Both the position numbers and the translations under genes were made by a program. From contig JAFTXX010000005.1 of assembly GCA_017461475.1 (NCBI GenBank), forward strand, positions 29,918 to 93,917: a stretch of DNA of 64,000 bases, given 5' to 3'. The stretch is from Clostridia bacterium (GTDB taxonomy: Bacteria; Bacillota; Clostridia; Oscillospirales; CAG-272). The notes beneath the pieces were generated by a model that saw nothing but the letters and a program-made list of their open reading frames with translations, was not told the origin of the DNA and did not search any database. Positions within the stretch are counted from its first letter, which is position 1. Every line of letters begins with the position of its first letter. Of the stretch, positions 1,714 through 42,497 are shown piece after piece.

Positions 1714-3864
<2,151 letters not shown>

Positions 3865-3930
3865 TTATTTTTCGGCACATTTACGGTCTTACAGCCGGTA
3901 CCTGCCGTACAGCCGTATCTGTTCCGTTTG

Positions 3931-4767
3931 TTACTTTGTTATTCTTTTCAGATGAACGGTAAGGGTTACAAGTTCATCATTATTGATGGTTTTTTTATAG
4001 GTTTCCTGAATATATTTCTGTATGCACAAAGCACATTTATACTGAGAAACACATGTTTTCTTTATCATGGTAACAAAAGTATCATCGTCACCAAAGGCAT
4101 TCGGAAGCGGCTTATTAAGAAACAGTCTTTGCGCAAGATGTTTTAAATGTGAAGCAAACCGCTCAAACTCCACGCTGCTTCTGTCAAACTTTTCTTTATA
4201 ATAATACTCCGCGATTTCGATACAACCGTTTATCAATTTTGTAATTCGGTAGATATCGTCCATCTTTGTATTCAAACTTGCATTGATAATATGCATTGCG
4301 ATGAAGCCGGCTTCATCTACACCAAGTTCAATACCGAGGCGCTCGCGCATTTGTTCCACGCAATACTCTCCTAGCGCAAGTTCCTTCGGATATGACTCAC
4401 GGATAGAATCGATAAGCGGATTTGTGAATTCCATACCGTTTTTCTTTCTCTCTATAGTGAAAGCAATATGATCGCTGAGCGTAACAAGTAAGGATTCGTT
4501 GAGCTTTGAAGAATACTCCTTTTTAATGTGCTCTACAATATCATTGGCAAAAACCATGTATTCAAACGGAATTTCTTTAAGCATGGTGATCATTTTTTTC
4601 TGAAGTTCCGAATCCGTAATCAAATATGTTTTCTGTATTTGCGAAATATCGACAGTATCACCGTATTTTTTCCCAAAGCCTATTCCCTTACCTGAAACAA
4701 TCTGTTCCCTGCCTTGGTCGTCAATTACACATAGATTATTATTGTTAATGGCTTTAATAACTTTCAT
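3931..4767 (-). CDS. glcT: BglG/LicT/GlcT-family PRD-containing transcription antiterminator
   Basis: N-terminal CAT RNA-binding domain (MKVIKAINNNNLCVIDDQGREQIVSGKGIGFGKK) followed by two PRD-like regions. I chose the ATG at 4767 (GGAGAA RBS), not the track start at 4800, because the upstream extension would run into the leader terminator U-tract. Confidence 0.85.
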   Translation of the reverse strand: MKVIKAINNNNLCVIDDQGREQIVSGKGIGFGKKYGDTVDISQIQKTYLITDSELQKKMITMLKEIPFEYMVFANDIVEHIKKEYSSKLNESLLVTLSDHIAFTIERKKNGMEFTNPLIDSIRESYPKELALGEYCVEQMRERLGIELGVDEAGFIAMHIINASLNTKMDDIYRITKLINGCIEIAEYYYKEKFDRSSVEFERFASHLKHLAQRLFLNKPLPNAFGDDDTFVTMIKKTCVSQYKCALCIQKYIQETYKKTINNDELVTLTVHLKRITK

Positions 4768-4784
4768 AACTTTCTCCGTTTTTG

Positions 4785-4842
4785 AAAATAAAAAAGCCAA
4801 CCTTATACACGAAACAATACAAAAAATCGCGTAAAAAGTTGG
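4785..4842 (-). terminator. Leader intrinsic terminator upstream of glcT, overlapping the 3' side of the RAT
   Basis: mRNA CCAACUUUUUACGCGA-(14-nt loop)-UCGUGUAUAAGGUUGG followed by CUUUUUUAUUUU. About 15 bp stem with one mismatch. Its 5' arm shares CCAA with the RAT basal stem. Confidence 0.6.
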
Positions 4843-4867
4843 TTATGCCCTTGCGGTAACACTCCAA
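4838..4867 (-). promoter_or_regulatory. RAT-like (ribonucleic antiterminator) element
   Basis: mRNA UUGGAGUGUUACCGCAAGGGCAUAACCAA. It resembles Bacillus RATs (GGAUUGUUACUG...CAGGCAAAACC), with UGUUAC and GGCA..AACC conserved. The apical stem is shortened to CC-GCAA-GG. The basal stem UUGG/CCAA is mutually exclusive with the terminator. Confidence 0.55.
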
Positions 4868-4899
4868 TAAATGTCATCAAAATATTCTTTTTCATTCAC

Positions 4900-4928
4900 A
4901 ATATATCATATATCAGCACAATAGTCAA
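4900..4928 (-). promoter_or_regulatory. Sigma-A type promoter of the glcT-ptsGHI operon
   Basis: TTGACT - 17 nt - TATATT on the minus strand, about 35 nt upstream of the RAT. Confidence 0.55.
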
Positions 4929-5110
4929 TACCTTTTTATCAACTTTAACGATTTTTATGCATCATGCTCAAAAAGAAAAGCCGTGAATATTAATATTGTA
5001 CAAACAAAATTCATCAACACAAAGGTAACTGCCGATACAGCCAATGTCATTAAATATTAATGAGACTTCTATAATTGTTTAAATTTGTTAATGCAAAACG
5101 CAGTGCAAAT

Positions 5111-5137
5111 ACCCGCATGAGAGTTACTCATGCGGGT
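5111..5137 (-). terminator. Hairpin downstream of the GRE activase gene; possible weak terminator
   Basis: ACCCGCATGAG-AGTTA-CTCATGCGGGT, an 11-bp perfect stem. On the minus strand it is followed only by AUUUGCACUGCGUUUU, a poor U-tract. Confidence 0.4.
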
Positions 5138-5146
5138 CTTTACTTT

Positions 5147-6079
5147 CTATAACATTTTGATTGCTTTTGCAGGAACCGAATTCACAAGAAGCGGCAAAAA
5201 ATCATTCTTTATGCGTTCTTTAAAAGTCTTCGCGTCAAAATTTTCGGGGGTAAAGATGTTTTGTTTACCGATGTCATTTGCTTTTGGTACACCTGTGGTA
5301 TGATAGGGCTCGATATGCACCTCAAGCAGATTTTGCAAAGAATTTGCAAGCTTTGCAATATAGGCAAAATGCTCGGCGTTATCGTTGACCTGTGGAATTA
5401 TTGGACAGCGGAGAATTATTTTTGCACCGCTCTTGTCAAGCTGCTTTAAGTTTTCGTGCAGTTTTGTGCCGTCGTTGCCTGTAAACGCTTTATGATTTTC
5501 TCCGGGTATCATCTTGCAGTCGTACAAAAAGATGTCCGTGTATTCTTTCGCGGCGAGCAGATCTTCAATCCGTGCAGCACCCGATGTTTCGATGCAAGTG
5601 TGAAGTCCCTCATTCTTTGCTGCTTTCAAGAGTTCAAGCAAAAATTTGCTTTGCGAAAACGGCTCGCCGCCGCTCACAGTCATTCCGCCGCCGTTTTTAT
5701 AAAACTCGACGTCGCGCATTACGGCAGCGATGACCTCGCCGACACTCTTTTCCTCGCCCGTAACTTCAAGCGCATCTGTGGGGCAAACATCGGTGCAGGC
5801 AAAGCAACCTTTGCATTTTGCGCGGTCAAAAAGATGCCTGCCGTCATTTATCGCATGGGCATTATATTGGCAAACAGTTGTACACGCTCCGCAGCCGATG
5901 CAAGTACCCGCATGGTAAAAGAGTTCGGATGTGCCATTCCATGACTCGGGGTTATGACACCACGCGCAACGGAGAGGGCAACCCTTTAAAAATACCGTTG
6001 TTCGGATGCCCGGACCGTCATGCAGGCAAAAGCGCTGGATGTCAAACACTCTGCCATTCATATCAGATACTGTGCTCAT
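5147..6079 (-). CDS. Glycyl-radical enzyme activating protein (radical SAM)
   Basis: 310 aa. Contains FCLHDGPGIRT, a CPLRCAWCHN radical-SAM cluster, and two ferredoxin-type motifs (CIGCGACTTVC, CKGCFACTDVCP). Its start overlaps the GRE stop by 17 nt. Confidence 0.9.
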   Translation of the reverse strand: MSTVSDMNGRVFDIQRFCLHDGPGIRTTVFLKGCPLRCAWCHNPESWNGTSELFYHAGTCIGCGACTTVCQYNAHAINDGRHLFDRAKCKGCFACTDVCPTDALEVTGEEKSVGEVIAAVMRDVEFYKNGGGMTVSGGEPFSQSKFLLELLKAAKNEGLHTCIETSGAARIEDLLAAKEYTDIFLYDCKMIPGENHKAFTGNDGTKLHENLKQLDKSGAKIILRCPIIPQVNDNAEHFAYIAKLANSLQNLLEVHIEPYHTTGVPKANDIGKQNIFTPENFDAKTFKERIKNDFLPLLVNSVPAKAIKML

Positions 6080-8189
6080 TGCGGTCTATTATCTCCTGCT
6101 GCATCTCGGGCGAAAGCTTTGTAAAATACGCGGAAAATCCGCCGACGCGCACAAGCAGGTCACTGTGATTTTCGGGGTGCTCGCGTGCGTCAAGCAGAGT
6201 TTCTCTGTCAACGGCATTGAGCTGCAACTGAAAACCACCAAGACGCATAAATGTGCGCACAAATTCAAGCATTTTGTCCTCTGATTCTCCCTGCATACAG
6301 CTCGGTGTAAACTTCATATTAACGGCGATGCCGCCGATAAAATTGCGGTGGTCCCACGAAAGAGTAGAAAGCATTGCCGCGGTGGGACCGTTGGTTTCGC
6401 GTCCTTGCACGGGACTTGAACCCGACGAAAGCGGATAACCCGCGTGGCGTCCGTCGGGCGTTGCACCCGTGCGCTTGCCGAAACGCGCATGCTCATAATA
6501 TGAAAACGCACCGGGAACAAGCGTAGAGCCGCGATATGTATAAAGTCCCTTGCACCCCGAGAGAATACTGTCGGCAAGGCGCTTTGCAAGCGAATTTGTA
6601 AAGTCGTCATCGGTGCCGTAGTGCGGCAGTTTATGGATAATGCGCTGTCTGAGCGCCTCGTTGTCCTCATAATCCTTTGCGAGGATGTCCGAAAGTGCTT
6701 CTACCGTATAATCTTCGCTCTCAAATACGAGGGCATTTATCACGGCGAGCGAATCTACCGCGTTTGAAAATCCAAGGAAGTTAGGTTCGACAAAGTTATA
6801 GACCGCGCCGCCTGCGTCAACCGCCTTGCCGCGCGACAGACAATCGTCGGTGAGACACGAAACTCTCGCACACTCATGTCCGTTGCGGGCACGTTCCATC
6901 TGCGCGCGATTCATATCGATGTTACGGCGTGCAATTTCATTGTGCAAAACACCCTCAAAAACTCTGTAAAAGTCGTCAAAAGACTTTGCGTCCCTTCCCT
7001 TTTCCATTGCAGTAAGGAGCATTGCGGCGAGATTGTGATAAGGCGAAACAACGTGTATGCCGGATTTGCCGACGGGAGTTATCTCAACACAGCCTGTGTT
7101 GCAATAGTTGTGTGCGTCGCTGTGCGGCATGCCTGCGCGCATAAGCCCTTCTACAATGATACGGTCGTTGAACAGAGCAGGTTGAGCACATCCGATGGCG
7201 TTCAGGCGAATAGCCTTTTTTAAGAGTTCATCGCTCATATCATCGGTGACAGCAAGGCTGACTTTACCGTTTGCACTGCGTGCGTATTCGATAGCTTCAA
7301 TGGCGATGTGTGTGACCTCGTTTTCGACAGTTTTGCCGTCCTCTGTCGTGCCGCCCACCATTGCGTCAAGCGCAATGCTCGGGGAGATATACGCCTCGGG
7401 CAAAAGCAAGAAGCAGGCGTAAAGTTCTACTGCGTCCTCATGCGTGAGTCTGCCTGCGGCTACATCGGCGTTGTAAAGGTCAATAAGATAGCGGTCAACT
7501 CTGCCGAAGTAGTAGAGGTTCCACATTGTAGAATTGTAAAAATGAATAGCCTCGAGTCCCTCGCGGAAGGTGCGGGGCGGCTCGGCGGGAACGCGGTCCA
7601 TCATCTCGGCAATGTCCAGCAGTTCCTTTTTTCTTGTTCCTTCTGTGCTCTCCGCAAGGCTTCTCGCCTTTTCGGCGTAGCGGCGCTGAAGTCGGACAAG
7701 CGCTTCAAGTTCAACCTTGCAGCACTCGTAAAACTCGCATTTATCGATGTTCTCGGGCAGATTAAGGTCAAGCGCCGCCATACGGCAATTGACCTCGTCG
7801 AGGAGACCGTTTACACCGATGCGAACAAGTTTGGCATAGTCGAGCGCCATATGACCCGAGGTGATGTGCGATCCCTGCGGTGAAAACTTCATCCCCTGCT
7901 CTAAGGTGTCGTATTCCTTTTGCTCCTCTTCGGTAAGCGGAGAAAGGTCAGGAAGACCTACTATAAGTTCGCCGTCATTGATGACGGGCTCCATATTGTC
8001 AAGCAAATACGCATCGGCATGAGCGCGGCGCAGGCGGTAGGAATAGAGATTTCCGTTTTTCGACAGTGCGCGCATAAAGTTCAGCCGCTGTCGGCGCTGA
8101 CGGTTATAAAATATATTTTCTGTGAAAATGGGGGTCGTCTTATAAAAAGCGCGGAGAGAATTTATTCTGTCGATTGCAGACTGTTTCAT
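6063..8189 (-). CDS. Glycyl radical enzyme, PFL-like fold, eliminase/dehydratase-type active site; substrate unknown
   Basis: 708 aa. C-terminal glycyl-radical motif LLVRVGGFSAYF (Gly684), thiyl loop NTGCVEITPVG (Cys367-x-Glu369), and GATPDGR and GGFQLQLN signatures. Confidence 0.85.
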   Translation of the reverse strand: MKQSAIDRINSLRAFYKTTPIFTENIFYNRQRRQRLNFMRALSKNGNLYSYRLRRAHADAYLLDNMEPVINDGELIVGLPDLSPLTEEEQKEYDTLEQGMKFSPQGSHITSGHMALDYAKLVRIGVNGLLDEVNCRMAALDLNLPENIDKCEFYECCKVELEALVRLQRRYAEKARSLAESTEGTRKKELLDIAEMMDRVPAEPPRTFREGLEAIHFYNSTMWNLYYFGRVDRYLIDLYNADVAAGRLTHEDAVELYACFLLLPEAYISPSIALDAMVGGTTEDGKTVENEVTHIAIEAIEYARSANGKVSLAVTDDMSDELLKKAIRLNAIGCAQPALFNDRIIVEGLMRAGMPHSDAHNYCNTGCVEITPVGKSGIHVVSPYHNLAAMLLTAMEKGRDAKSFDDFYRVFEGVLHNEIARRNIDMNRAQMERARNGHECARVSCLTDDCLSRGKAVDAGGAVYNFVEPNFLGFSNAVDSLAVINALVFESEDYTVEALSDILAKDYEDNEALRQRIIHKLPHYGTDDDFTNSLAKRLADSILSGCKGLYTYRGSTLVPGAFSYYEHARFGKRTGATPDGRHAGYPLSSGSSPVQGRETNGPTAAMLSTLSWDHRNFIGGIAVNMKFTPSCMQGESEDKMLEFVRTFMRLGGFQLQLNAVDRETLLDAREHPENHSDLLVRVGGFSAYFTKLSPEMQQEIIDRNEHSI

Positions 8190-8190
8190 T

Positions 8191-8925
8191 TTAATAATTC
8201 AATCCTCCGTTTATGTATATCGGCATACCCGCGATGCGGTTGCTCTTATCGGATGCAAGAAATGCCGCAAGGTCGGCAATTTCATCTGGGTGCGCCATTC
8301 TGCAAAAGGCGCTGTTGTACTCGTCCGACTTGCCCTCTTCCCAGCGCATCATCTCGGTTGTTACAGGACCGGGAGCGATATTCTGCAGAACTATTCCGCG
8401 CTTAAAGAGTGCCTTGGCAAGTCCTAGACACATACCGCGCACGCTCCATTTTGAGATGCCGTAAGGTGATATGTGCGGCTGATGTCCGCATTCCGAGCCG
8501 ATAACGATTATCTTGCCCTTGAAATCGCCTTCGTTGTTTTCGAGATAGTAATTTGCCGCCGACTGACAGCAGAAGTACGCGCCCTTGACATTGACAGAGA
8601 ATATCCTGTCCCATTCTTCCTCGCGCACCTGTAAAAACTTTTCGCGGTCAATAACGCCCGCGTTGTTAACAACTACATTGAGACCGCCCATGTACTTTGC
8701 GGCTTGTTTCATTACCTCGGGACCTTTTGCTACATCGGAAACATCCCACTCAATCGCATGGGCATTTGCACCGAGGGCTTTAAGTTTGTCCAAAACGGGC
8801 AAAAGCGTTTGCATATTCCGCCCCGTGATAACGAGGTCTGCCTCCTCTTTTGCATAGCAAATTGCAATAGCCTCGCCGATACCGCGGCTGGCACCTACAA
8901 TAAGGATTTTTTTGCCTTTAAGCAT
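8191..8925 (-). CDS. Short-chain dehydrogenase/reductase (SDR)
   Basis: VGASRGIGEAIA cofactor loop, NNAGV, and a catalytic Ser...YGISK triad. I chose the ATG at 8925 (GGAGG RBS) over the track start at 8982. Its stop lies 1 nt before the GRE start. Confidence 0.85.
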   Translation of the reverse strand: MLKGKKILIVGASRGIGEAIAICYAKEEADLVITGRNMQTLLPVLDKLKALGANAHAIEWDVSDVAKGPEVMKQAAKYMGGLNVVVNNAGVIDREKFLQVREEEWDRIFSVNVKGAYFCCQSAANYYLENNEGDFKGKIIVIGSECGHQPHISPYGISKWSVRGMCLGLAKALFKRGIVLQNIAPGPVTTEMMRWEEGKSDEYNSAFCRMAHPDEIADLAAFLASDKSNRIAGMPIYINGGLNY

Positions 8926-8959
8926 CTCAAAAACCTCCGAAAGTATGACATTCACATTC

Positions 8960-8988
8960 ATTATACTTAGAAAATCATACATCGTAAA
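8960..8988 (-). promoter_or_regulatory. Candidate promoter of the SDR-GRE-activase operon
   Basis: TTTACG - 17 nt - TATAAT on the minus strand, about 35 nt upstream of the SDR RBS. Confidence 0.35.
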
Positions 8989-9042
8989 TGCATTTTTCGG
9001 CTATGTTTGTAAAAATCGGAACAAAACAGCTTACGTCCAAAT

Positions 9043-9072
9043 AAAAAACCGACGGCGAGCCGTCGGTTTTTT
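9043..9072 (-). terminator. Intrinsic terminator after the DUF378 gene (bidirectional architecture)
   Basis: AAAAAA-CCGACGGC-GA-GCCGTCGG-TTTTTT immediately after the stop at 9075. Confidence 0.8.
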
Positions 9073-9074
9073 AT

Positions 9075-9284
9075 TTATTCATGCGATTCTACTTCGCGGG
9101 GGCGCATAAGAAGAGAGATACACCATATGCCTGCAAGGGCAACAGCGGTGTAAATCACTCTGCTGACTATTGCTGCCTGACCGCCGCAAAGCCATGCGAC
9201 AAGGTCAAAGCTGAAAAGTCCTATGGCACCCCAATTAAGCGCTCCGATGATAACAAGGAGCAATGCTATTCTGTCCATTATCAT
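9075..9284 (-). CDS. DUF378 family small membrane protein
   Basis: 69 aa, two TM helices, with the motif IIGALNWGAIGLFSFDLVAWLCGG typical of DUF378. Confidence 0.7.
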   Translation of the reverse strand: MIMDRIALLLVIIGALNWGAIGLFSFDLVAWLCGGQAAIVSRVIYTAVALAGIWCISLLMRPREVESHE

Positions 9285-9355
9285 TTTACAATCCTCTTTT
9301 CATAATATTGCCGCAATTGCAGTATACCCAACTCAGAGGAAATTTATTTAATTTT

Positions 9356-10900
9356 TTATTTAAATTCAAGCATAAGCGAGCGCACGCCCGAAAGTGCTTC
9401 GGGACGGGTGTAATCGCTCTCGGAAATTTCAAGCGCATTTACTTTGGCAAGAGACTCGGGATTGACATGATATTTTTTTGCGAGGTTCCAAAGACTTTCA
9501 CCGTTTGGATATATAAGACAAAGCGGGTACGTGCTCTTTTTATACTGCTCTTTAGATGTGCAGTCTACGGACGCGAGGATGCGTTCTTCCTTTTCCTGCG
9601 TCGCGCGGACAGAAAGTGCGATATCCATGTCGCAAACGAGGTTGTCGTCTTCAACGCGTACGCGCGGATTTATGAGAGTTGCGCATGCGGTTACCGCCGT
9701 ATCGGCGGATGTGTCACAATCGAGAGCAATGCTGAACGGAACTGTATAATCGGCGGATGTAACGCCGCCGTCAGTGCCGATGATTGATGAAAGCTCACAT
9801 CTGCCGGAGACGGTTATTTTCCCCGCAGAAGCTGCGGACTCCTCTATTACTGCTTTGCCAGATGTGTCAATAACAGAAGTCGCTTCTGCCGCGCCCGCAT
9901 TGGCTTTTGCCACACTTGCGCCGACGGTGTATACACCGCTGCGCGACAGTGCAAGGCGTGATGATTTTACGGTGCGGTGAGAGCAACTTGCACTGACATC
10001 GCACGAAAAAGCATCTTTCATCACCGAAACTGCTGTCGGCGTGTCGGCAGTGACTTCAACCGATATCACTGAATCTACTGTCACTTCCCTGTCGCTTTCC
10101 TTTGCCGCCTCGGTGGAAATGACATGCGCTACTGCGCACACGGCGCTTGCACGCGTCACATCACCATCGAGAAATTCGTCAAAAGGAATTTTCTTTGTGT
10201 ACATTCTCGGTGTTCCGTTTTCGTCTACAAGCACCTTGGCAAGCACTTCCCCACGTACGGTTACGCCGCCGTCGGTGGCACGTGCGTCAGTGACTGCAGC
10301 GGCTGAACCGCACCACAAAAGGCGCGAACCGTCGGCACCGCTTGTCTCAACGCGGTCAGAAATCTGTATATCTGACGAATTTAGTATCTGTGTTTTCAAA
10401 GTATCTGCTACGCCGTAGAGTTTGCTTACGTTTAAAGCGTCAACAGGGGTTATGTCGGCAGATACATCCTCTGCCGCAAAGCAATGTGATTTTATACCGA
10501 GGCGGGTGCGGATATTTAATTTGCGCGGTGCGGTAATGCGGTATGTGAGCCCGTCAACCTCGACTGAGGAAGTGACGGTTGGCGTGGGCGTGCCGCTTAC
10601 GGGCAGTGAAAACTCATACTTTGACGGGAGCACCGTTGCGCCAGTTTCGCCGTCCTCGCCGAGGTAAATAAGCGTGTGCAGAACGTTTCCCGACATCTGC
10701 ACGCTGTTTCCGCCCACATAGCGTGACGGCGGCAGTGCGCGCGCTTCAAGGCGAAGCACCTTTTGAATCTTCGGCATGTAGTCGGGCAGTACAAATTCCC
10801 CGCCGCTTTCTATAAGTTGGCTTTGCATCTGCGTCTCGCTCTGCAAAGCGGACGCGCGGTCAATTACAAATTCTTTTTTATCTTGGCTCTCTCTGTTCAT
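9356..10900 (-). CDS. DUF3794 repeat / C-terminal LysM protein, SipL/SpoVID-like spore morphogenesis candidate
   Basis: DUF3794-like EFVLPDYMPKIQKVLRLEA near the N-terminus and a C-terminal LysM (LCLIYPNGESLWNLAKKYHVNPESLAKVNAL). I chose the ATG at 10900 (AAAGGAGAA RBS); the track extension to 10999 would cover a terminator hairpin. Confidence 0.6.
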   Translation of the reverse strand: MNRESQDKKEFVIDRASALQSETQMQSQLIESGGEFVLPDYMPKIQKVLRLEARALPPSRYVGGNSVQMSGNVLHTLIYLGEDGETGATVLPSKYEFSLPVSGTPTPTVTSSVEVDGLTYRITAPRKLNIRTRLGIKSHCFAAEDVSADITPVDALNVSKLYGVADTLKTQILNSSDIQISDRVETSGADGSRLLWCGSAAAVTDARATDGGVTVRGEVLAKVLVDENGTPRMYTKKIPFDEFLDGDVTRASAVCAVAHVISTEAAKESDREVTVDSVISVEVTADTPTAVSVMKDAFSCDVSASCSHRTVKSSRLALSRSGVYTVGASVAKANAGAAEATSVIDTSGKAVIEESAASAGKITVSGRCELSSIIGTDGGVTSADYTVPFSIALDCDTSADTAVTACATLINPRVRVEDDNLVCDMDIALSVRATQEKEERILASVDCTSKEQYKKSTYPLCLIYPNGESLWNLAKKYHVNPESLAKVNALEISESDYTRPEALSGVRSLMLEFK

Positions 10901-10937
10901 AGTATTCTCCTTTAAACGGTTTTTGATAAATACTATG

Positions 10938-10970
10938 AAAAAAGAAGGCAAACTATGACGGTTTGCCTTC
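10938..10970 (-). terminator. Intrinsic terminator in the regulator/SipL-like spacer
   Basis: Minus strand reads GAAGGCAAAC-CGTCATA-GTTTGCCTTC followed by UUUUUU. Confidence 0.7.
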
Positions 10971-11163
10971 TTCAGTGTGTCGAAAAACTTTCGGCACACA
11001 ACAATATAATAAAATTGTTTTTGGGGCGGACATGTGCCGACCCAAAAACTCCTTAAAAACCGCGCGCGGTGAGCACGGCGAGAGCGAACGGTTTTGCCCC
11101 AGTCGAAAAAATCTTATTTTTTCGACTGACTCAATGAAGACAAACTATGACGGGGATTTGTCT

Positions 11164-12463: not shown

Positions 12464-15400
12464 ATGAAAAAGTTTCTTTTTGCCCTTTGTTTACTGCTAT
12501 GTCTTTCGCTTGCGGTTATCTGTGCGGGAGCGAGCGACGCGGTGGTATTTGTTTCCTCCGGCGGCACGGGCGACGGCTCTAGCGCGGACAGCCCGCTTGG
12601 CTCGCTTGCCGAAGGTTTTTCCGCTGTGGGTGAGAGCGGCGGTACTGTCGTGCTTACAAGCGACATCACCATAAGCACCGCGACCAATCTGCCCGACCAC
12701 ACGGGTACTGTAACGCTGACAAGCGTTTACGGCGGTGTTGACTACCGCACGTCAAACAATGCGGCTCTGCGCTACACCGCGTCGGCACGTCTTGTCCTCG
12801 GCGGTCCTACCGTTATTGACAACTTCAACATTGAAATCGACCAGGGCGCAAATGCGGGCGCGGTTATCGCCGCGGACTTCAACCCGCTGAAGATCGGTTA
12901 CGGCGTTGAGATAGTACATAATTATACGCCTACATTCCCGTCACGTATGTTTATCATCGGCGGCTCCAACAACGATGCAAACGGCAACGGTCTTGCCGCG
13001 GGTGAGGAATGTTCGCTTGAAATTTACAGCGGCGACTACATGCAAGTTACCGCGTTCAGCCGCGGTACTGCAAACAAGGCGCATTACGGCACGATGAATG
13101 TTACAATAGGCGGCGATACGACCGTATACGAGACATACCTCGGTGCGGTGACGACAGGGGCAAGCGGCGGTACTGTTAATTTAGAGCTTAAGGAAAATGC
13201 CAAGCTTAACGGCACTGGACTTTTCCTCAGCGGCAACGCAGGTTCTATGAACGGCGATGTTACCGTAAATGTACGCGACAATGCAGAAATCACCGCAATC
13301 AGCCGTTATGCTGCTTCTCTTCACAGCGGAACAAAGACCGTCAATGTTTACGGAGAAGACGTTTCGCTCCCGTCTTCTCTTGACACATACTTTGATGTTG
13401 TAAACATTTATATCCCCAAAGACACGGTAACACTCACCGAAAGCATTAATGCTGACAACATCGTTTTCGTCACGGCAGACGGCACGGAAATATCAGCGGA
13501 TATTACAGCCAACGAAAGCGGCATCACCTTAAAATATACCGAGAGCCTTGAAAACTTTACTCTCGCAATCACCGTGAAAGACAGCGGCTATACCGTATAC
13601 GAATACACCGTTACCGAGACCGACAACACCGCATCGGCTGTACTCGCAGGTACAAACACTTATGCAGGCAATGTGATCTACGTCGGTGCGACCGACGGCA
13701 ACGGTCTCACTCCCGAAACTCCCGTTTCTTCTTTTGCGAAAGCATATGAAATGCTCATAGGCAACGGCGGCACATTTGTCGTTTGCGGCGAAATAACAAT
13801 GAGCGTGGCTATCGTTGCACCTGAACATACGGGAAATCTCACCGTAACAAGTGTTTACGGTGGAATTGACTACCGCGAAAGCGGCGCAAAGCTCGTTTAT
13901 CCCACCTCTACAGGCTGGCAGATCGGCGGCGATACCGTATTTGAAAACCTCACATTTGATATTGCCACCACCGCGGTCATCAGCGGCGCATTTCATCCGC
14001 TGACATTCGATGAGGGCATCGAGGTCATCAATGACTATTCAAGCGCGGACGGTAACGGACTCTACCTCATCGGCGGTCACAACAAGGGCACAAACACACT
14101 TGACGAGTACCCCGATAACACATCTGTAACCGTTCGCAGCGGTCACATCCGATGTATCATCGGTTTCTCCCGCTACAGCGGCGCGCGCGTTCACACAGGT
14201 CAAGCAACCATAAATGTTGAAGGCGACGCATATGTACGCTATGTATTCGGCGGTGCTGCACAGGACAATTCAACCTCCAAGGATACACTTATCAACGTCA
14301 AAGACAAAGCTATTGTAGAGAACCTCTACACTGGCGGCAGCACTAAGACCAACCTCACAACCGGTGAAGTAATTATAGACGTCACCGAGCTTGACGGCGG
14401 CGATATCTATGAATTTGATACTATCAGCATCCATACCTCCGACGGAAAAGTAAAGCTTCACTACGATCCGCGTACCGTTGCAAACGGCATCACCACCATG
14501 GCAACAATGGCTCGCTTTGAGGTACTTTCCCCCTGCGACAGAGCAGGTGAACACACTTTTGGCGAAGTTTATGCAAATCCCTTCGGCGGCGAGTTCACCG
14601 CTCACACCTGTGAGATATGCGACTACACATGCCTTGTTGAAGAAGCCCCCGAGGCGGTTGCCGACGGCGTTGTATTCGTGGCTGACGGCGGCTTCGGCGA
14701 CGGTTTAAATCCGCTCCATCCTTTCGGCAATCTTGAGGATGCATTCAATGCACTTGGCAAAGAAGGCGGCACTATCGTGCTTATAGACGAGTGCACCCTC
14801 CCAGTCAACCTTGAATGGAAGTTTGGCGCAACTCACGTATCTTTCCAAGAACCCGTGCATACGGGCGAAGTGCTTATCACCTCTGTTTACGGCGGTACCG
14901 ACTACCGCGAGAGCGGCGCTAAGCTTATCTTTGACGGCAATATGCACTACCGTCTCAGCGGCCCTACTACCTTTAACCAAATCGTATTTGATACCGTAGG
15001 CAATCCCACCACTAACCTTGTTGCCGCAAGATACAATCCGCTTGTATTCGGCGAAGATTGCAAGATGAATAAAACGACCGAAGACGGTTACAACCTTTGG
15101 GTAGTGGGCGGATACCAGTATTTCCGCTACACCGACTTTATCGGCGTTGAGATCGAAGACAAATATCTTGAGATGGTTACTCCCGCACGTCAAAAGACCT
15201 GGGAATTTGAGCCCGATGACCTTGTTGAGTTTACTTATACAGCAGGTAACGGCAATACATATACCCCTTCGCTCCAAAAGGAAGCCGCTGCTGCTTTCTC
15301 TCAGATGTTTGCAGACATGGCGGCGGAAGGTCTTTACATCCCGTATTGCGGCTGGAACTTCCGCAGTGCACATATCCAGTACGGCATCTTCTCCGACTCC

Positions 15401-16144
15401 GTAGGAAATCTGCGTGCAAATGGATATGATTTTGACACCTCTTACCTCGCTGTAGCAAAAAGCGCTTCTCCCGCAGGTTCAAGTGAGCATCAGCTCGGCT
15501 TTGCATTCGATATCTATGACGAGAGACTCGAAGAGAACTATGGTGTGGGCAACGCTCATTCTCATTACGATGAAACTCCCGAATGGCAGTGGATAATGGA
15601 AAACGGTGCAAAATACGGTATCATCCACCGCTTCCTCGCAGACAAGACTGCAGTTACAGGCTTTATCTACGAGGCATGGCATTTCCGCTATGTAGGCGTT
15701 GAGCACGCAAAAGCCATTGCCGAAACCGACTACTGCCTTGAAGAATATGTCGGTGAGACTATGGGTATGTTCGCTAAAGATTCGAGCGTGACGGCGCTCA
15801 GCGGCTCATTCTATCAAATAATGGGCGGCTCGCGCGGCTGTGACAACCTCACTTTCACGGGTACAAACCGCGTAACTGTTGGTGAAAGCGCAACCGTTGT
15901 CAACCTCGTCGATGTTGACGAAGAGGTTAAAAACGAGGATGAAGACACCGATTTCGGTGAAGTTACCCTTGCGGGCGACGCCGACGGAAACGGCGTGCTG
16001 AGTCTTATTGACGCGCTGCGCGTATTGAAGTACGCAGTAAGCAACGATGTTGAAATCAACCTCGCAAACGCCGACATGAACGGCGACAAGGCGGTTGATA
16101 TTTTGGATGTGTTGCTTGTGATTAAAGCTATATTGAACAGTTAA
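12464..16144 (+). CDS. Secreted multidomain protein: three beta-helix-like modules, a VanY/peptidase M15B domain and a type I dockerin
   Basis: Signal peptide. Three roughly 330-aa modules each open with a ...GGxGDG...P...L..A...GGT(I/V)V... cap and contain the motif TSVYGG(V/I/T)DYR. VanY motifs SEHQLGFAFDI and EAWHFRYVG. C-terminal dockerin GDADGNGVLSLIDALRVL...ADMNGDKAVDILDVLLV. Confidence 0.75.
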   Translation: MKKFLFALCLLLCLSLAVICAGASDAVVFVSSGGTGDGSSADSPLGSLAEGFSAVGESGGTVVLTSDITISTATNLPDHTGTVTLTSVYGGVDYRTSNNAALRYTASARLVLGGPTVIDNFNIEIDQGANAGAVIAADFNPLKIGYGVEIVHNYTPTFPSRMFIIGGSNNDANGNGLAAGEECSLEIYSGDYMQVTAFSRGTANKAHYGTMNVTIGGDTTVYETYLGAVTTGASGGTVNLELKENAKLNGTGLFLSGNAGSMNGDVTVNVRDNAEITAISRYAASLHSGTKTVNVYGEDVSLPSSLDTYFDVVNIYIPKDTVTLTESINADNIVFVTADGTEISADITANESGITLKYTESLENFTLAITVKDSGYTVYEYTVTETDNTASAVLAGTNTYAGNVIYVGATDGNGLTPETPVSSFAKAYEMLIGNGGTFVVCGEITMSVAIVAPEHTGNLTVTSVYGGIDYRESGAKLVYPTSTGWQIGGDTVFENLTFDIATTAVISGAFHPLTFDEGIEVINDYSSADGNGLYLIGGHNKGTNTLDEYPDNTSVTVRSGHIRCIIGFSRYSGARVHTGQATINVEGDAYVRYVFGGAAQDNSTSKDTLINVKDKAIVENLYTGGSTKTNLTTGEVIIDVTELDGGDIYEFDTISIHTSDGKVKLHYDPRTVANGITTMATMARFEVLSPCDRAGEHTFGEVYANPFGGEFTAHTCEICDYTCLVEEAPEAVADGVVFVADGGFGDGLNPLHPFGNLEDAFNALGKEGGTIVLIDECTLPVNLEWKFGATHVSFQEPVHTGEVLITSVYGGTDYRESGAKLIFDGNMHYRLSGPTTFNQIVFDTVGNPTTNLVAARYNPLVFGEDCKMNKTTEDGYNLWVVGGYQYFRYTDFIGVEIEDKYLEMVTPARQKTWEFEPDDLVEFTYTAGNGNTYTPSLQKEAAAAFSQMFADMAAEGLYIPYCGWNFRSAHIQYGIFSDSVGNLRANGYDFDTSYLAVAKSASPAGSSEHQLGFAFDIYDERLEENYGVGNAHSHYDETPEWQWIMENGAKYGIIHRFLADKTAVTGFIYEAWHFRYVGVEHAKAIAETDYCLEEYVGETMGMFAKDSSVTALSGSFYQIMGGSRGCDNLTFTGTNRVTVGESATVVNLVDVDEEVKNEDEDTDFGEVTLAGDADGNGVLSLIDALRVLKYAVSNDVEINLANADMNGDKAVDILDVLLVIKAILNS

Positions 16145-28995: not shown

Positions 28996-29035
28996 CAAAA
29001 ATACCAAGTTCACGGTGTGAACTTGGTATTTTTTA
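28996..29035 (-). terminator. Intrinsic terminator after apbE
   Basis: ATACCAAGTTCAC-GGT-GTGAACTTGGTAT flanked by A- and T-runs. Abuts the stop codon. Confidence 0.85.
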
Positions 29036-30064
29036 CTTCATATATTTTTCAAATCCTGCGGAGTATTTTATTTCGCCTGTGGGGAGTACCCACATGGCTT
29101 CGACGTTTTCGAGGGAATCAACAAGCGCACTGCCCTCCTCTGCGCTCATACAGAAAAGCGCTGTGGAAAGTGCATCTCCGAGGGCGGAACTGTCGCATAT
29201 GACAGAGACCGAGCGGAAGTTTTCACCGGGCATGAGCGTTTCGGGGTCGATGATGTGATGATAGGCTTTGCCGTCGACGTAGTAGTACCGCTGGTATGAA
29301 CCGCTTGTGACTACCGCTTCGCTTTCGACTGCAAGGTAAGCAAGATATGCTTCATCTTCGCTTTCGGCATCGGGGTTCTCTATGCCGACTGTCCATTTTG
29401 TGCCGTCCGGACGTGCGCCTACGGCGCGGACATTGCCGCCCACATTGAGAAGATAGCCGCTGATTTCCTTTTCTTCAAGGCTTTTTGCAACCATTTCCAC
29501 CGCGTAGCCCTTGGCTATGGCGCCGACATCAAGAGACATTTCACCGTCAAGGAGAGTAACTGTATTATTATCTTCGTCAATAATTACTTTTTCAATGTCG
29601 GTATGCAGTGACGCGGCTTTAAGTTTTTCCATATCGGGGAGAGCCGCTGACTCGGGGTGGCGCTCACCGTGGGTGCGTGCATTGTGCCAAAGCGAGAGCA
29701 CACTGCCCATTGCAACATTTGTATTCCCGTTTGTCAAAGTATATGCCTCTTTTGAAAAAGCGAGCATATCAGTAATTCTTTCATCAACTTCTACGGTGCC
29801 GTCGGAGTGATTGACGGTGTAAAGATTAGTGAGCCCGTCATAGTGATTATAGATATTATAAAGTCGGTGATACTCTGTAAATTGTGCGCTGATATCGGCG
29901 CAGACTGCGTCGAAATCCTCTTTGTTGTCGGCATAGCCGACAATTGTGGTGGCGGTGTCGAACCAGTCAAAATAGTACGCGGTGAATTTTTCGGGTGTTT
30001 TTTCCCCGCATGAGGAAAAAAGCAGGATTAAAACCGCCGAGGCGACTATTATAAATTTTCTCAT
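29033..30064 (-). CDS. apbE: FAD:protein FMN transferase (ApbE), lipoprotein
   Basis: Lipobox LLFSSC. ApbE motifs DVGAIAKGYA, TSGSYQRYY and GKAYHHIIDPETL. Confidence 0.9.
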   Translation of the reverse strand: MRKFIIVASAVLILLFSSCGEKTPEKFTAYYFDWFDTATTIVGYADNKEDFDAVCADISAQFTEYHRLYNIYNHYDGLTNLYTVNHSDGTVEVDERITDMLAFSKEAYTLTNGNTNVAMGSVLSLWHNARTHGERHPESAALPDMEKLKAASLHTDIEKVIIDEDNNTVTLLDGEMSLDVGAIAKGYAVEMVAKSLEEKEISGYLLNVGGNVRAVGARPDGTKWTVGIENPDAESEDEAYLAYLAVESEAVVTSGSYQRYYYVDGKAYHHIIDPETLMPGENFRSVSVICDSSALGDALSTALFCMSAEEGSALVDSLENVEAMWVLPTGEIKYSAGFEKYMK

Positions 30065-30087
30065 GTTTTTCTCCGCAAAAAAGATTT

Positions 30088-30115
30088 AAAAAGGGACGCC
30101 GAGGCATCCCTTTTT
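30088..30115 (-). terminator. Intrinsic terminator after the duplicated lipoprotein gene
   Basis: Minus strand reads AAAGGGA-(10-nt loop)-TCCCTTT followed by TT. Confidence 0.55.
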
Positions 30116-30132
30116 GATTTTAACTTAAAAGC

Positions 30133-31152
30133 TTACTGAGCTGCCTTTACCATAGCTGCTGCCATGTCGGTAATGCCGATAGTGCAACCTGCGGTCTGTA
30201 CATCCTCTACGCCGTAGCCGTCAACAACGAGTGCCGCAACTTCGGTAGCGGTGAGACCTGTGCATGCGGTATTGAATGCAGCAGCCTGCTCGTTCCACTC
30301 GAGAACTTTGCCGTCGCCGTTGAGGTCTGCGCCGTATGCTGCCATACCGTAATCTGCGCCCTTCTCAAGTTTGGTGAGAATCTCTGCAGCGGTATCGGTG
30401 GTTGCTTCGCCGAGAGCGGTGAAGGTAACTTCTGCTACTGCAACATCGGTTGCGCAAGCGGTAATCTTGCCGTCAGCGTCGGTTGCTGCAGCCGCTACGG
30501 TGATGTCTACTTCGATAGAACCTTCTGCGTCTGCGGTAGCATCGGTAGCGGATGCGGAAGTAACAACGCCTACCTTAACTGTATCGGTTGCTTTTGCAGT
30601 GGACTCTGCCGCGTTTGCAACTGCCTTTTCAACAGCCTTGATGTAATCGGAAATACCGATAGTGCAACCTGCGGTCTGAACTTCTTCAGTGCCGTAGTAA
30701 CCGTCAACAACGAGAGCCTTTACTTCATCAACGGTCTTGCCGACAACAACGCCTTCAAGAGCGTCAGCCTGCTCGTTCCACTCGAGAACTTTGCCGTCGC
30801 CGTTGAGGTCTGCGCCGTATGCAGCCATACCGTAGTCGGTGCCGAGTTCTGCCTTGGTCTTGAACGCATCTGCAACAACAGCCGCACCTGCGGAAGTGTA
30901 CTCTACAGAGATGTCTGCGCAGTCAATGTCGCAAGCAACGATTTTGCCGTCAGCGTCAACGAGAACTGCAGCAACAGTTGCAAGAACTTCGCCTGCGCCG
31001 TTGGTTTCGCCGTCAGCGGAGGTTGCTTCACCGTAGTAGGTGTAAACACCCATGCCGAAATTAACATTTGCAGCCTCTGCTTCAGAGCCGCAAGAAACGA
31101 GGGTAGTAAGTGCCATAAGCACTACCAATGCAATGCTGAGAATCTTTTTCAT
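30133..31152 (-). CDS. Tandem-duplicated lipoprotein with FMN_bind-like repeats (non-canonical AGCT motif)
   Basis: Lipobox LVSC. Two roughly 160-aa repeats each contain DADGKI(V/T)AC, DYGMAAYGADLNGDGKVLEWNEQA and VQTAGCTIGI(S/T)D. There is a 69-nt intragenic DNA repeat with 1 mismatch (30283-30351 vs 30766-30834). Confidence 0.5.
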   Translation of the reverse strand: MKKILSIALVVLMALTTLVSCGSEAEAANVNFGMGVYTYYGEATSADGETNGAGEVLATVAAVLVDADGKIVACDIDCADISVEYTSAGAAVVADAFKTKAELGTDYGMAAYGADLNGDGKVLEWNEQADALEGVVVGKTVDEVKALVVDGYYGTEEVQTAGCTIGISDYIKAVEKAVANAAESTAKATDTVKVGVVTSASATDATADAEGSIEVDITVAAAATDADGKITACATDVAVAEVTFTALGEATTDTAAEILTKLEKGADYGMAAYGADLNGDGKVLEWNEQAAAFNTACTGLTATEVAALVVDGYGVEDVQTAGCTIGITDMAAAMVKAAQ

Positions 31153-31224
31153 GTCTTTTCTCCTTTAGAATAAATTTTTACCACAGAAATTATGCCACAA
31201 CGGACATACTTTGTCAAGAGTTTA

Positions 31225-31719
31225 TCAATACTTTTTAAGGCGCTCTGTCAAAAACGCGCCCGCTATACCTATAAACACTCCCGCGAGCGTACCGCTTATC
31301 GCAAGTATAAACATATAGTACCCGATTTCGGCAGTTTCCAGAAGGAGCATGGCAACAAGAATTTGCCCGAGATTGTGCATGACCCCGCCGGCGACACTTA
31401 CACCTACGGTGGAAAATTTGTCGGTCTTTTTTAAAAGCGCCATAACGGTAAGACTGAGAGCCGCGCCGGCAAGGCTGTAGATGAATGTTGACGGGTTGAA
31501 CAAAAGTGCCATTATTATCAGACGGATAAATGACGCCGCCGCGGCACTGCCTGCACCGTATTTATAAAGCAGAACTATAATAACGATATTGGGTAGTCCG
31601 ACCTTGATTCCGGGAACGGCGGAATATATCGGCGGAAGCAGCATTTCTATATATGAAAGAATGACGGCAACCGCGCTTATCACGCCTATAAATGTAATTC
31701 TTTTGACACGGTTATTCAT
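31225..31719 (-). CDS. Gx transporter family protein (Hpre_diP_synt_I / PF07456-like)
   Basis: 164 aa, about 5 TM helices. Motifs VPGIKVGLPNIV, SLAGAALS and GVSVAGGVMHNLGQILVA are typical of this family. Confidence 0.75.
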   Translation of the reverse strand: MNNRVKRITFIGVISAVAVILSYIEMLLPPIYSAVPGIKVGLPNIVIIVLLYKYGAGSAAAASFIRLIIMALLFNPSTFIYSLAGAALSLTVMALLKKTDKFSTVGVSVAGGVMHNLGQILVAMLLLETAEIGYYMFILAISGTLAGVFIGIAGAFLTERLKKY

Positions 31720-32090
31720 TACGCCACCATATCAAGCCCTGTATCGCTTGCCTTTTCCGATTTTACAGTAACTACTACACCGTGAGGGAGACAGGTTATC
31801 GTCTCTCCAATGCGTGATATTGGTGTGTGATCGACACATATGCCGTCGGGACAATTTGCTTCCTTAATATATGCTTTGCCGTCCGCAATAACAAGAGTAT
31901 TTACACCGCCGTCGGTTTCTATCACAAATTCGGTATCGGTATCAAGCGGAAAACGGGCAGTTTCCTCACCGTTTATGAGTACCACGGCAAAATCGCCCTG
32001 GCGGCTTAATGTTTTAAACAGCAGAAGTCCTGCTACTGCTGCGAGTAACAGGACTGCCGTAAGTATTATATCATTGCGTCTTTTTGACAT
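31719..32090 (-). CDS. NusG domain II-containing membrane-anchored protein (DUF1312)
   Basis: N-terminal TM helix, then ...NTLVIADGKAYIKEANCPDGICVDHTPISRIGETITCLPHGVVVTV (CPDxxC...CLP signature). Confidence 0.75.
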   Translation of the reverse strand: MSKRRNDIILTAVLLLAAVAGLLLFKTLSRQGDFAVVLINGEETARFPLDTDTEFVIETDGGVNTLVIADGKAYIKEANCPDGICVDHTPISRIGETITCLPHGVVVTVKSEKASDTGLDMVA

Positions 32091-32098
32091 TTTTAATC

Positions 32099-32914
32099 CT
32101 ATACTTCAAAATTGACCGCCGTAATGCAATGAACGGGGCAAACTTCTACGCACTTGCCGCAATTTGTACACTTTTCATAGTCGATTGCCGCAAGATTGTC
32201 TTTTACACTTATAGCCTGCGCATGACAATTAAGTTCGCACTTTTTGCATGCGATGCAGGCATTTTTGCAATTCTTTCTTGCAACGGCGCCCTTTTCCTTA
32301 TTGTTGCAGAGGACGACCTGCTTTGAGCCAATTGGAACAAGGCTGATAATGTGTTTAGGACAAGTTTTTGCACATTTTCCGCAACCTATGCAAAGGCGGC
32401 TGTCTACTCTTGCAACGCCGTCAACAACGCATATCGCGTCTGCGGGGCAAACGTCTGCACAGTCGCCGCATCCAACGCATCCGTAGTTGCACGCGTTGGC
32501 ACCGCCGTAAAGCACGGATGCCGCGCGGCAGGAATTCATACCGTCGTAAATTGCCTTTTTGGGTGCTGCGTCGCAGGTGCCGTTACAGTGAACGACGGCG
32601 ACGCTCTTTTCTTTAACTTCGCTCTCGGCGACGGCAACGCCGAGAATTTCGGAAATCTGCTCAACGACTGCCTGCGCACCGGGAACACAGAGAGTGGTTT
32701 TTACCCCCTGCTCTTCTACGAGCGCTTTCGCGTATGCGTCGCAACCGGCATAGCCGCATGCTCCGCAGTTTGCGCCGGGGAGACATTCGCGGATTTTGGT
32801 AACGCGCTCGTCTGTTTTAACTGCGAAAAAGTGGGACGCAAGCACAAGAATGACCGATGCAATAAATCCTACCACTGCTACTACAAGGAGTGCTGTTAAA
32901 ATATCTGTAATCAT
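32099..32914 (-). CDS. rnfB: Rnf complex subunit B (polyferredoxin)
   Basis: N-terminal TM helix, CGACGYAGC, and several CxxCxxCxxxCP 4Fe-4S motifs. Confidence 0.9.
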   Translation of the reverse strand: MITDILTALLVVAVVGFIASVILVLASHFFAVKTDERVTKIRECLPGANCGACGYAGCDAYAKALVEEQGVKTTLCVPGAQAVVEQISEILGVAVAESEVKEKSVAVVHCNGTCDAAPKKAIYDGMNSCRAASVLYGGANACNYGCVGCGDCADVCPADAICVVDGVARVDSRLCIGCGKCAKTCPKHIISLVPIGSKQVVLCNNKEKGAVARKNCKNACIACKKCELNCHAQAISVKDNLAAIDYEKCTNCGKCVEVCPVHCITAVNFEV

Positions 32915-32926
32915 TTTAATCCTCCT

Positions 32927-33526
32927 TTAAGCAAACAGGTTTTCAACGATTCCCGCAAAGCCGAAGAATGCAAGAGATACAAACGACGCCGCTATAAGAG
33001 TTACGGGAAGACCTTTGAGACTTTCGGGAACTTCGCTCTCGTCGATGTATGTACGGATGCCCGAAAACATTACCATTGCAAGGAGGAAGCCGAGGCCGCA
33101 TCCGAGCGAGGACACCATGGATTCCAGGAAGTTGTATCCGTCGGTGATGTTGTTGATGGTAACGCCGAGTACCGCGCAGTTGGTGGTGATAAGCGGCAGA
33201 TAAACGCCGAGGCTCTTGTGAAGCGCGGGGATGAACTTTTTGAGCAGTATTTCAACGAACTGCACGAGTGACGCAATAACGAGGATAAATACAATAGTCT
33301 GGAGATATCCGAGACCGTTTGCGTCAAGGATGTAATACTGGAGCGGATATGTCACCGCGGTTGCCATGAGCATGACAAACGTAACGGAAACACCCATGCC
33401 GACCGCCTGATTGAGTTTCTTTGAAACTCCGAGAAAGGGGCAGATGCCGAGGAAACGGCTGAGTACGTAGTTATTTACAAGTACGGAACCCATGAGGATA
33501 ATTATAAGCGACTTGAAAGTTTCCAT
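32927..33526 (-). CDS. rnfA: Rnf complex subunit A
   Basis: 199 aa polytopic protein of the RnfA/NqrE family (NNYVLSRFLGICPFLGVS). Confidence 0.9.
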   Translation of the reverse strand: METFKSLIIILMGSVLVNNYVLSRFLGICPFLGVSKKLNQAVGMGVSVTFVMLMATAVTYPLQYYILDANGLGYLQTIVFILVIASLVQFVEILLKKFIPALHKSLGVYLPLITTNCAVLGVTINNITDGYNFLESMVSSLGCGLGFLLAMVMFSGIRTYIDESEVPESLKGLPVTLIAASFVSLAFFGFAGIVENLFA

Positions 33527-42414: not shown

Positions 42415-42497
42415 ATCCCGTCTCCTTTTGTTAATTATCGCCAATTCCAATATATCACATTTATTTTTATAAAGCAATATAATAAATCGACATTTTT

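Follow-up and report, generated by a model that had tools for sequence, protein, structure and literature searches.

A compact, uncharacterised glycyl radical enzyme family with a co-inherited short-chain dehydrogenase/reductase in uncultured gut and rumen bacteria

Glycyl radical enzymes (GREs) carry out chemistry that is otherwise closed to anaerobes, and each new assignment, such as those of CutC, HypD, IslA and YbiW, has uncovered a gut-relevant pathway. A review of June 2026 catalogues glycerol dehydratase (GD), propanediol dehydratase (PD), HpfG, HypD, HpyG, HpzG, CutC, IslA/IseG, HpsG, HplG, YbiW and PflD, and states that whole GRE clades are still unvalidated (PMC13450708). In the present study a 64,000-nucleotide stretch of a Clostridia bacterium (contig JAFTXX010000005.1, positions 29,918 to 93,917), in the following called the window, was analyzed. 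Its minus strand carries three open reading frames (ORFs) for a short-chain dehydrogenase/reductase (SDR), a GRE of only 708 amino acids (aa), and a radical-SAM (S-adenosylmethionine) activase. No short, SDR-linked GRE is mentioned in the review, and literature searches for a pathway combining a GRE with an SDR, or for a short GRE, yielded nothing relevant.

The closest described system is the glycerol module DhaB1/DhaB2/DhaT of Clostridium butyricum (PDB 1R8W/1R9D), which gave the best structural match (Foldseek E 9e-48, query-normalised TM-score 0.92). Both are three-gene modules of a GRE, an activase and an alcohol/carbonyl oxidoreductase, both GREs have the Cys-X-Glu (CXE) motif in the Cys loop and a His that aligns with His164 of GD, and the activase of C. 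butyricum also carries extra Fe-S clusters. However, the identity is only 26%, GD has 787 aa, and the partner of the glycerol module is an iron alcohol dehydrogenase that is encoded last, whereas in the window a classical SDR is encoded first. Compared with GD and YbiW, the short GRE lacks about 50 N-terminal residues and 28–52 residues of internal loops, about 28 in the case of GD. PD (PDB 5I2G, 9RCO) is similarly close in structure (query-normalised TM-score 0.91–0.92), and its GH...DY motif, GCVE loop and N-x-K-F strand align with the window GRE, but the identity is 27%. Moreover, PD genes are situated in microcompartment loci, while none of 90 loci inspected here had a bacterial microcompartment (BMC) shell gene.

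Two further systems combine a reductive step with a GRE. YbiW and PflD, the C-O lyases for 1,5-anhydro-hexitol-6-phosphates ('anhydroglycolysis'; PDB 8ID7, 8ID0), receive substrates that arise by prior reduction of a keto-sugar, and functionally they are the closest parallel to a route that joins an SDR and a GRE. These sugar-acting enzymes share the CXE motif and the conserved His with the window GRE, and YbiW is its second-best sequence match (289 bits). In contrast, they are only 24–26% identical, have 765–810 aa, and act on phosphorylated substrates; the adjacency of a phosphotransferase system (PTS) in the window is not kept in orthologues. Their product is a 1-deoxy-ketose (PMC13450708). 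In the second system, a sulfoacetaldehyde reductase makes the alcohol substrate of the GRE eliminase IslA/IseG, but there a C-S bond is cleaved and the proteins have about 830 aa.

The window GRE (6063–8189, minus strand) matched Pfam families PF02901 (PFL-like) with 353.8 bits against a cut-off of 24.3, and PF01228 (Gly_radical) with 89.5 against 22.2. An initial annotation of this DNA, made from the letters alone, had remarked on its shortness, and a wrong start codon or an assembly artefact had been considered as possible causes. The ORF is already maximal and cannot be extended upstream, because the SDR stop codon is only 1 nt away, and a search of a database of 5.8 billion proteins retrieved the identical protein on five contigs and a 97% variant on two more. 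About 100 relatives of 680–733 aa span 98–100% of the query with scores from 1624 down to 472 bits; below them the score steps down to 334 bits, where 785-aa proteins resembling HypD begin. A library clustered at 50% identity held 1859 GRE clusters at E <= 1e-30, and its full-length representatives above about 350 bits were mostly 684–741 aa long. Average-linkage clustering of 258 GREs assigned the window protein to a group of 108 sequences with 604–750 aa (median 711), while the canonical group comprised 112 sequences with a median of 787 aa. Among 61 family members, down to 36% identity, 43 alignment columns are invariant. The short length is genuine, and the GRE belongs to an uncharacterised compact family of about 710 aa.

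The best sequence matches in the PDB were CutC, YbiW, PD and GD, with E-values from 1e-88 to 5e-83. Because the Foldseek identities were 20–28% across all solved GREs listed, the window GRE is roughly equidistant from every characterised GRE class. The model TIGR01774 (PFL2-3, the glycerol dehydratase/PFL2 subfamily) was matched over model positions 152–786 and scored 405.9 bits, below its cut-off of 678.2. The NCBIfam equivalog models, with cut-offs of 994–1150 bits, gave HypD 332, HpsG 310 (cut-off 1000), CutC 294 (1050), IAD 290 (1100), HpfG 289 (1000), PflD 286 (PRK09983; 1109), HPAD 211 (1150) and PFL 91 bits (994), and every score was a third of its cut-off or less. With these identities and all equivalog cut-offs failed, the tight clustering with a GRE of known function that the initial annotation had allowed for was not found. 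Ten randomly chosen GRE representatives of 818–840 aa likewise stayed below every equivalog cut-off. Orphan status is thus common among GREs, not rare, and since many clades are still orphan, the short family is not exceptional as a target.

An AlphaFold2 model of the GRE (pLDDT 94.4, pTM 0.93) has the canonical ten-stranded GRE barrel, with query-normalised TM-scores of 0.85–0.92 to all solved GREs listed and of 0.92 to GD and PD. The Cys loop G366-C367-V368-E369 (7083–7094, minus strand) contains the predicted thiyl radical Cys and general-base Glu, and the glycine loop R681-V-G-G684-F685 (6135–6149, minus strand) the predicted radical-storage residue Gly684. Both motifs had been read from the sequence before, as GCVE and RVGGFSAYF; they were recovered by script and in alignments, and C367, E369 and G684 turned out to be invariant in the 61 members. 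The CXE motif is kept by every C-O, C-N and C-S eliminase and by every isomerase (PMC13450708). In place of the Cys-Cys pair of the PFL type, the loop sequence TGCVE contains only one Cys. His113 (codon at 7851–7853, minus strand) is predicted to act as general acid on the leaving group. It is invariant in the 61 members, is aligned with the GH motif found in PD and YbiW, and corresponds by alignment offsets to GD residue 164, the His that protonates the leaving hydroxyl (PMC13450708).

The surroundings of these residues bear on the substrate. The stretch ITSGH, which ends with His113, contains no Arg in the window clade. Val380 and Val623 occupy the positions of an Asp and a Tyr of PD, which we take to be Asp447 and Tyr640 of GD. 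C-S lyases have an Arg/Gln/Arg triad for sulfonate binding (PMC13450708). This triad probably has no counterpart in the window protein, as neither Arg nor Gln occurs in ITSGH or in the strand GGIAVNMKF, the presumed equivalents of the triad positions in IslA and HpsG. Distant short-GRE subclades carry an Arg-rich GRxDH before the catalytic His (query residues 105–113; for example at locus L007, 8001–10106, and locus L032, 2714–4834), and some of these loci adjoin genes for KdgK, Eda, UxuA and IclR. Because Arg is missing near His113 and two Val replace the Asp and Tyr of PD, the residues hint at a neutral substrate for the window clade. The Arg-rich motif and the adjoining genes hint at anionic, sugar-acid substrates for the GRxDH subclades.

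The second characteristic of the system is its SDR. The protein (244 aa; 8191–8925, minus strand) has the features of a classical SDR, i.e. the Gly motif GASRGIG (residue 11), NNAG (87) and the catalytic YxxxK in YGISK (155), and it matched Pfam adh_short (PF00106) with 150 bits. None of the NCBIfam equivalog cut-offs was reached. The ORF had been listed as 8191–8982 with 263 aa, but the start is most likely the ATG at 8925, because GGAGG precedes that ATG, because a promoter-like element (see below) would put the transcription start downstream of 8982, and because the homologues have 242–248 aa. From basic residues in ASRGIG and ITGR, the cofactor rules of Kallberg and Persson predict a preference for NADP(H). 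The SDR forms a subfamily of its own (homologues P0121 to about P0200) with identities of 40–98%, below which there is an abrupt fall to generic proteins resembling FabG.

Whether the linkage of SDR and GRE is conserved in relatives was one of three points that the initial annotation had named as decisive. The SDR gene is directly upstream of the GRE gene in all nine loci with a GRE identity of at least 73%, and, in the subclade to which the window GRE belongs (identity of about 48% or more), within two genes of it in 18 of 26 loci. In addition, the identity of the SDR follows that of the GRE stepwise, from 67–86% via 50–55% to 36–44%. Conversely, two of three members of the SDR subfamily with 40–52% identity were found directly upstream of a GRE of 707 or 729 aa and an activase. 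In other short-GRE subclades the SDR is rare, and a divergent AraC-type regulator dominates there. The SDR is a dedicated partner of the GRE and is co-inherited with it.

The organization of the genes is equally compact. The stop codon of the SDR gene ends at 8191 and the ATG of the GRE gene is at 8189, leaving a gap of 1 nt, and the GRE gene overlaps with the activase gene (5147–6079, minus strand) by 17 nt, so that the tight packing noted at first sight was confirmed by the ORF coordinates. The 310-aa activase matched TIGR02494 with 318 bits against a cut-off of 174. The script located a CX3CX2C motif from residue 34 and two CX2CX2CX3C motifs from residues 60 and 89; the latter, together with Pfam Fer4 matches, verify the proposed insert with two ferredoxin-like motifs (residues 60–99; 5783–5902, minus strand). 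Upstream of the SDR gene there is a promoter-like TTTACG-17-TATAAT (8960–8988, minus strand), a consensus match only, with 10 of 12 positions matching. The strong terminator of a DUF378 gene, 90 bp further upstream, bounds the unit on this side. On the activase side the unit is bounded by a GC-rich hairpin with an 11-bp stem directly 3' of the stop codon (5111–5137, minus strand), which lacks a T-run on the minus strand, in accordance with the earlier description. An Rfam scan of 3800–9450 gave no family at threshold and only sub-threshold, terminator-like matches, and a riboswitch or leader RNA was therefore dropped. The three genes are a genuine operon for an oxygen-sensitive radical enzyme, and the operon is a self-contained anaerobic module.

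Gene neighborhoods, recurrent gene clusters and BMC genes were surveyed at up to 90 loci. Genes were called by conservation-weighted selection of six-frame segments, since calling of the longest ORFs lost SDR genes. All 80 loci from species-representative genomes belong to metagenome-assembled genomes (MAGs). The hosts are rumen and gut Clostridia, Oscillospiraceae and Eubacteriales, and furthermore Kiritimatiellaeota, Verrucomicrobia, Planctomycetota, Lentisphaerae, Armatimonadia and Chloroflexota; the family is confined to uncultured gut and rumen bacteria. The initial annotation had found neither a regulator nor a transporter nearby. This holds for the window locus and its close orthologues, but not for distant relatives, which have AraC, LacI and IclR regulators, sugar ABC transporters and glycoside hydrolases (GHs). 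Its statement that no microcompartment is nearby was corroborated: a BLAST search with a PduA sequence as query revealed no BMC shell gene in the six-frame ORFs of the 90 loci, among them the initial 22 kb of the window, and Pfam tables precomputed for part of the loci list no BMC domain.

Two loci illustrate the carbohydrate context of the relatives. Locus L090 (1–12729) encodes on a single strand GH2, an 822-aa protein of unknown type, a GDSL esterase, GH43, an SDR, a GRE (729 aa), an activase, a second GRE (740 aa) and an aldo-keto reductase, and this array looks like a hemicellulose-utilization operon with two orphan radical enzymes. Locus L004 (1882–14739), on another contig of the window's own MAG, has a paralogous cassette of SDR, GRE (729 aa, 51% identity) and activase behind a LacI regulator, flanked by a sulfatase and by three copies of a CAZyme-like 660-aa protein without a Pfam domain. 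A model of the latter has a beta-sandwich and an (alpha/alpha)6 barrel, with the polysaccharide lyase BACCELL_00875, GH76 and AGE epimerases as top folds. At other loci sugar ABC systems, a FucI-like isomerase, an FGGY kinase, a class II aldolase, KdgK, Eda and UxuA were found.

Two observations on these loci were made in passing. The family of the 660-aa protein is widespread, and its members are 66–96% identical among the 120 best-scoring homologues from gut Clostridia. At four loci (L020, L022, L087 and L019) two or three divergent orphan GREs of 685–765 aa are encoded together, which are 24–31% identical to each other's clades. Most of these genes are followed by an activase gene, several of the proteins have an RVCGW glycine motif and GCNE or GCYE Cys loops, and the additional GREs all keep CxE and reach no NCBIfam equivalog cut-off.

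From these results we infer that the GRE is a C-O-cleaving 1,2-eliminase which, in concert with an NADP(H)-dependent reductase, acts on a neutral diol derived from a sugar or polyol, a reading to which we assign a probability of roughly one half. This is in line with the initial proposal of an eliminase-type GRE with an SDR partner and an undescribed substrate, which gained support, as none of the three findings named in advance as speaking against it turned up. In the proposed mechanism the activase, with SAM and [4Fe-4S] clusters, would generate a radical on Gly684, which would move to Cys367, and the thiyl radical would take a hydrogen atom from a carbinol carbon of the substrate. Glu369 would deprotonate the hydroxyl of that carbon, and His113 would protonate the oxygen substituent on the adjacent carbon; this substituent may be a hydroxyl, and a ring or methyl ether is also conceivable. 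Its departure would yield an alpha-keto radical, and return of the hydrogen atom from Cys367 would yield a deoxy-carbonyl product. The co-translated SDR of the NADP(H) type would perform an adjacent carbonyl/alcohol step on the same skeleton. Either the SDR would reduce an alpha-hydroxy-carbonyl to a vicinal diol, which the GRE would then dehydrate, a net reductive alpha-dehydroxylation that is slightly favored, or it would reduce the carbonyl product of the GRE as an electron sink.

As for the substrate class, a neutral diol or polyol of carbohydrate origin is the most likely candidate. Several points weigh against the proposed chemistry. The combination of CXE and His cannot distinguish dehydration from ring-opening isomerization, and the specificity of the His for C-O cleavage is taken from the literature. 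Around the nine orthologous cassettes that are closest to that of the window, the flanking genes are unrelated (uvrB, ftsW, an ABC ATPase), so that the link to carbohydrates is borrowed from paralogues at 36–54% identity, and these differ in pocket residues. Furthermore, AraC-type regulators are not sugar-specific, the GH43 domain is genuine in only six loci, and the SDR is equidistant from FabG, acetoin reductases and glucose and ribitol dehydrogenases (94–128 bits), which gives no clue to a substrate.

The strongest competitor is a small-diol electron sink, which we regard as rather unlikely. In this case the GRE would dehydrate 2,3-butanediol made by the SDR from acetoin, or 1,2-propanediol, glycerol or ethylene glycol; the SDR would make the diol or reduce the carbonyl product, and reducing equivalents would be disposed of as by DhaB1/DhaB2/DhaT, for example via acetoin, 2,3-butanediol and butanone. 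The solitary cassettes at the nine orthologous loci, devoid of a transporter, kinase, aldolase or regulator, would fit this, as would the closest folds, GD and PD, and the two Val residues, which make the pocket more hydrophobic than that of PD. An acetoin reductase and butanediol dehydrogenases are also among the best NCBIfam and PDB matches of the SDR; yet it scored 155 bits against the acetoin reductase cut-off of 304, and the identity of the GRE to GD and PD is only 26–27%. Moreover, the paralogous cassettes are embedded in glycan-degrading loci, and the predicted preference for NADP(H) would be unusual for an electron-sink dehydrogenase.

Cleavage of a C-N or C-S bond in an amino-alcohol or hydroxy-sulfonate, as performed by CutC, IslA and HpsG, is improbable. 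The SDR would then make the alcohol from an aldehyde, as IsfD, itself an SDR, makes isethionate, and this precedent for a reductase feeding a GRE is accompanied by a CXE motif common to all eliminases and by CutC as the top PDB sequence match (302 bits). However, the scores for CutC, HpsG and HpfG given above are far from their cut-offs, and neither Arg nor Gln is present at the presumed triad positions for sulfonate binding. In addition, the annotated recurrent clusters at the 90 loci contain no sulfite reductase, aminotransferase, microcompartment or aldehyde dehydrogenase, of which only BMC shell genes were searched for directly.

Membership in the PFL-like superfamily would also be compatible with a formate-lyase, a decarboxylase or a fumarate-adding enzyme, but the single Cys-x-Glu in place of the PFL Cys-Cys pair, the low scores for PFL, IAD and HPAD, and the lack of small-subunit genes among the ORFs make such chemistry highly improbable. 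A degenerate or misassembled gene without function, suggested by the MAG origin and by one source that labels the GRE a 'hypothetical protein', has the least chance of all and is effectively refuted by conservation, in view of the copies on further contigs, the intact catalytic motifs and invariant columns, the confident structural model, and the intact, overlapping activase gene.

A more specific version may be put forward tentatively, namely that two enzymes, the short GRE and its dedicated SDR, make up a radical deoxygenation module whose substrates are sugars or polyols in free and unphosphorylated form, released from glycans of plants or of the host. In a reductive alpha-dehydroxylation, such a module might convert a ketose via an alditol to a 1-deoxy- or 3-deoxy-ketose, or by radical chemistry it might cleave a ring ether or an O-methyl ether.

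The initial annotation had pointed to the directly adjacent glcT-PTS operon, but a functional link was rejected. The genes for a LicT/GlcT-type antiterminator and a PTS IIBCA protein have their own promoter (TTGACT-17-TATATT) and an antiterminator leader (4767–4930, minus strand), in which a sequence resembling a ribonucleic antiterminator (RAT), GGAGUGUUACCGCAAGGGCAUAACC, and the stem of a terminator with a U-tail (fold z-score -3.3) overlap. The orthologous cassettes have other neighbors, and none of them adjoins a PTS. The glcT-PTS operon is a separate transcription unit, and the antiterminator gene itself appears to be under antitermination control.

On the plus strand, positions 12464–16144 encode a 1226-aa protein that combines a VanY domain (D,D-carboxypeptidase) with a type I dockerin at its C-terminus; a dockerin is unusual on a peptidoglycan peptidase. 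Its N-terminal repeats are also found in giant GH43 surface proteins of related MAGs, and an apparent 'giant GH43' cluster that connected it with the GRE was discarded as an artefact of these shared repeats. The genes at 9074–9283, 9356–10999, about 29000–37600 and 40159–42477 (all minus strand) are of the kind to be expected in a saccharolytic, spore-forming Clostridia MAG. Among them are those for the DUF378 membrane protein, a SipL/LysM sporulation protein, ApbE and Rnf-complex genes and a GH43 protein, and a glycogen phosphorylase and an alpha-amylase are encoded further along. A second GRE gene was not found within the window.

Taken together, what the short GRE offers at present is a well-defined target for the discovery of enzymes rather than proof of a new reaction. 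The family is compact, structurally well predicted and restricted to uncultured organisms, and the built-in SDR partner narrows down the chemistry and offers a ready NADPH-coupled assay. The recurrent siting of relatives in hemicellulose- and glycan-degrading loci points to a radical step in anaerobic sugar metabolism of the rumen and gut. If the deoxygenation module were real, it would be an unrecognized anaerobic route of carbohydrate utilization with a wide distribution among uncultured Clostridia of the rumen and gut and among bacteria of the PVC group, with paralogues specialized for different sugars.

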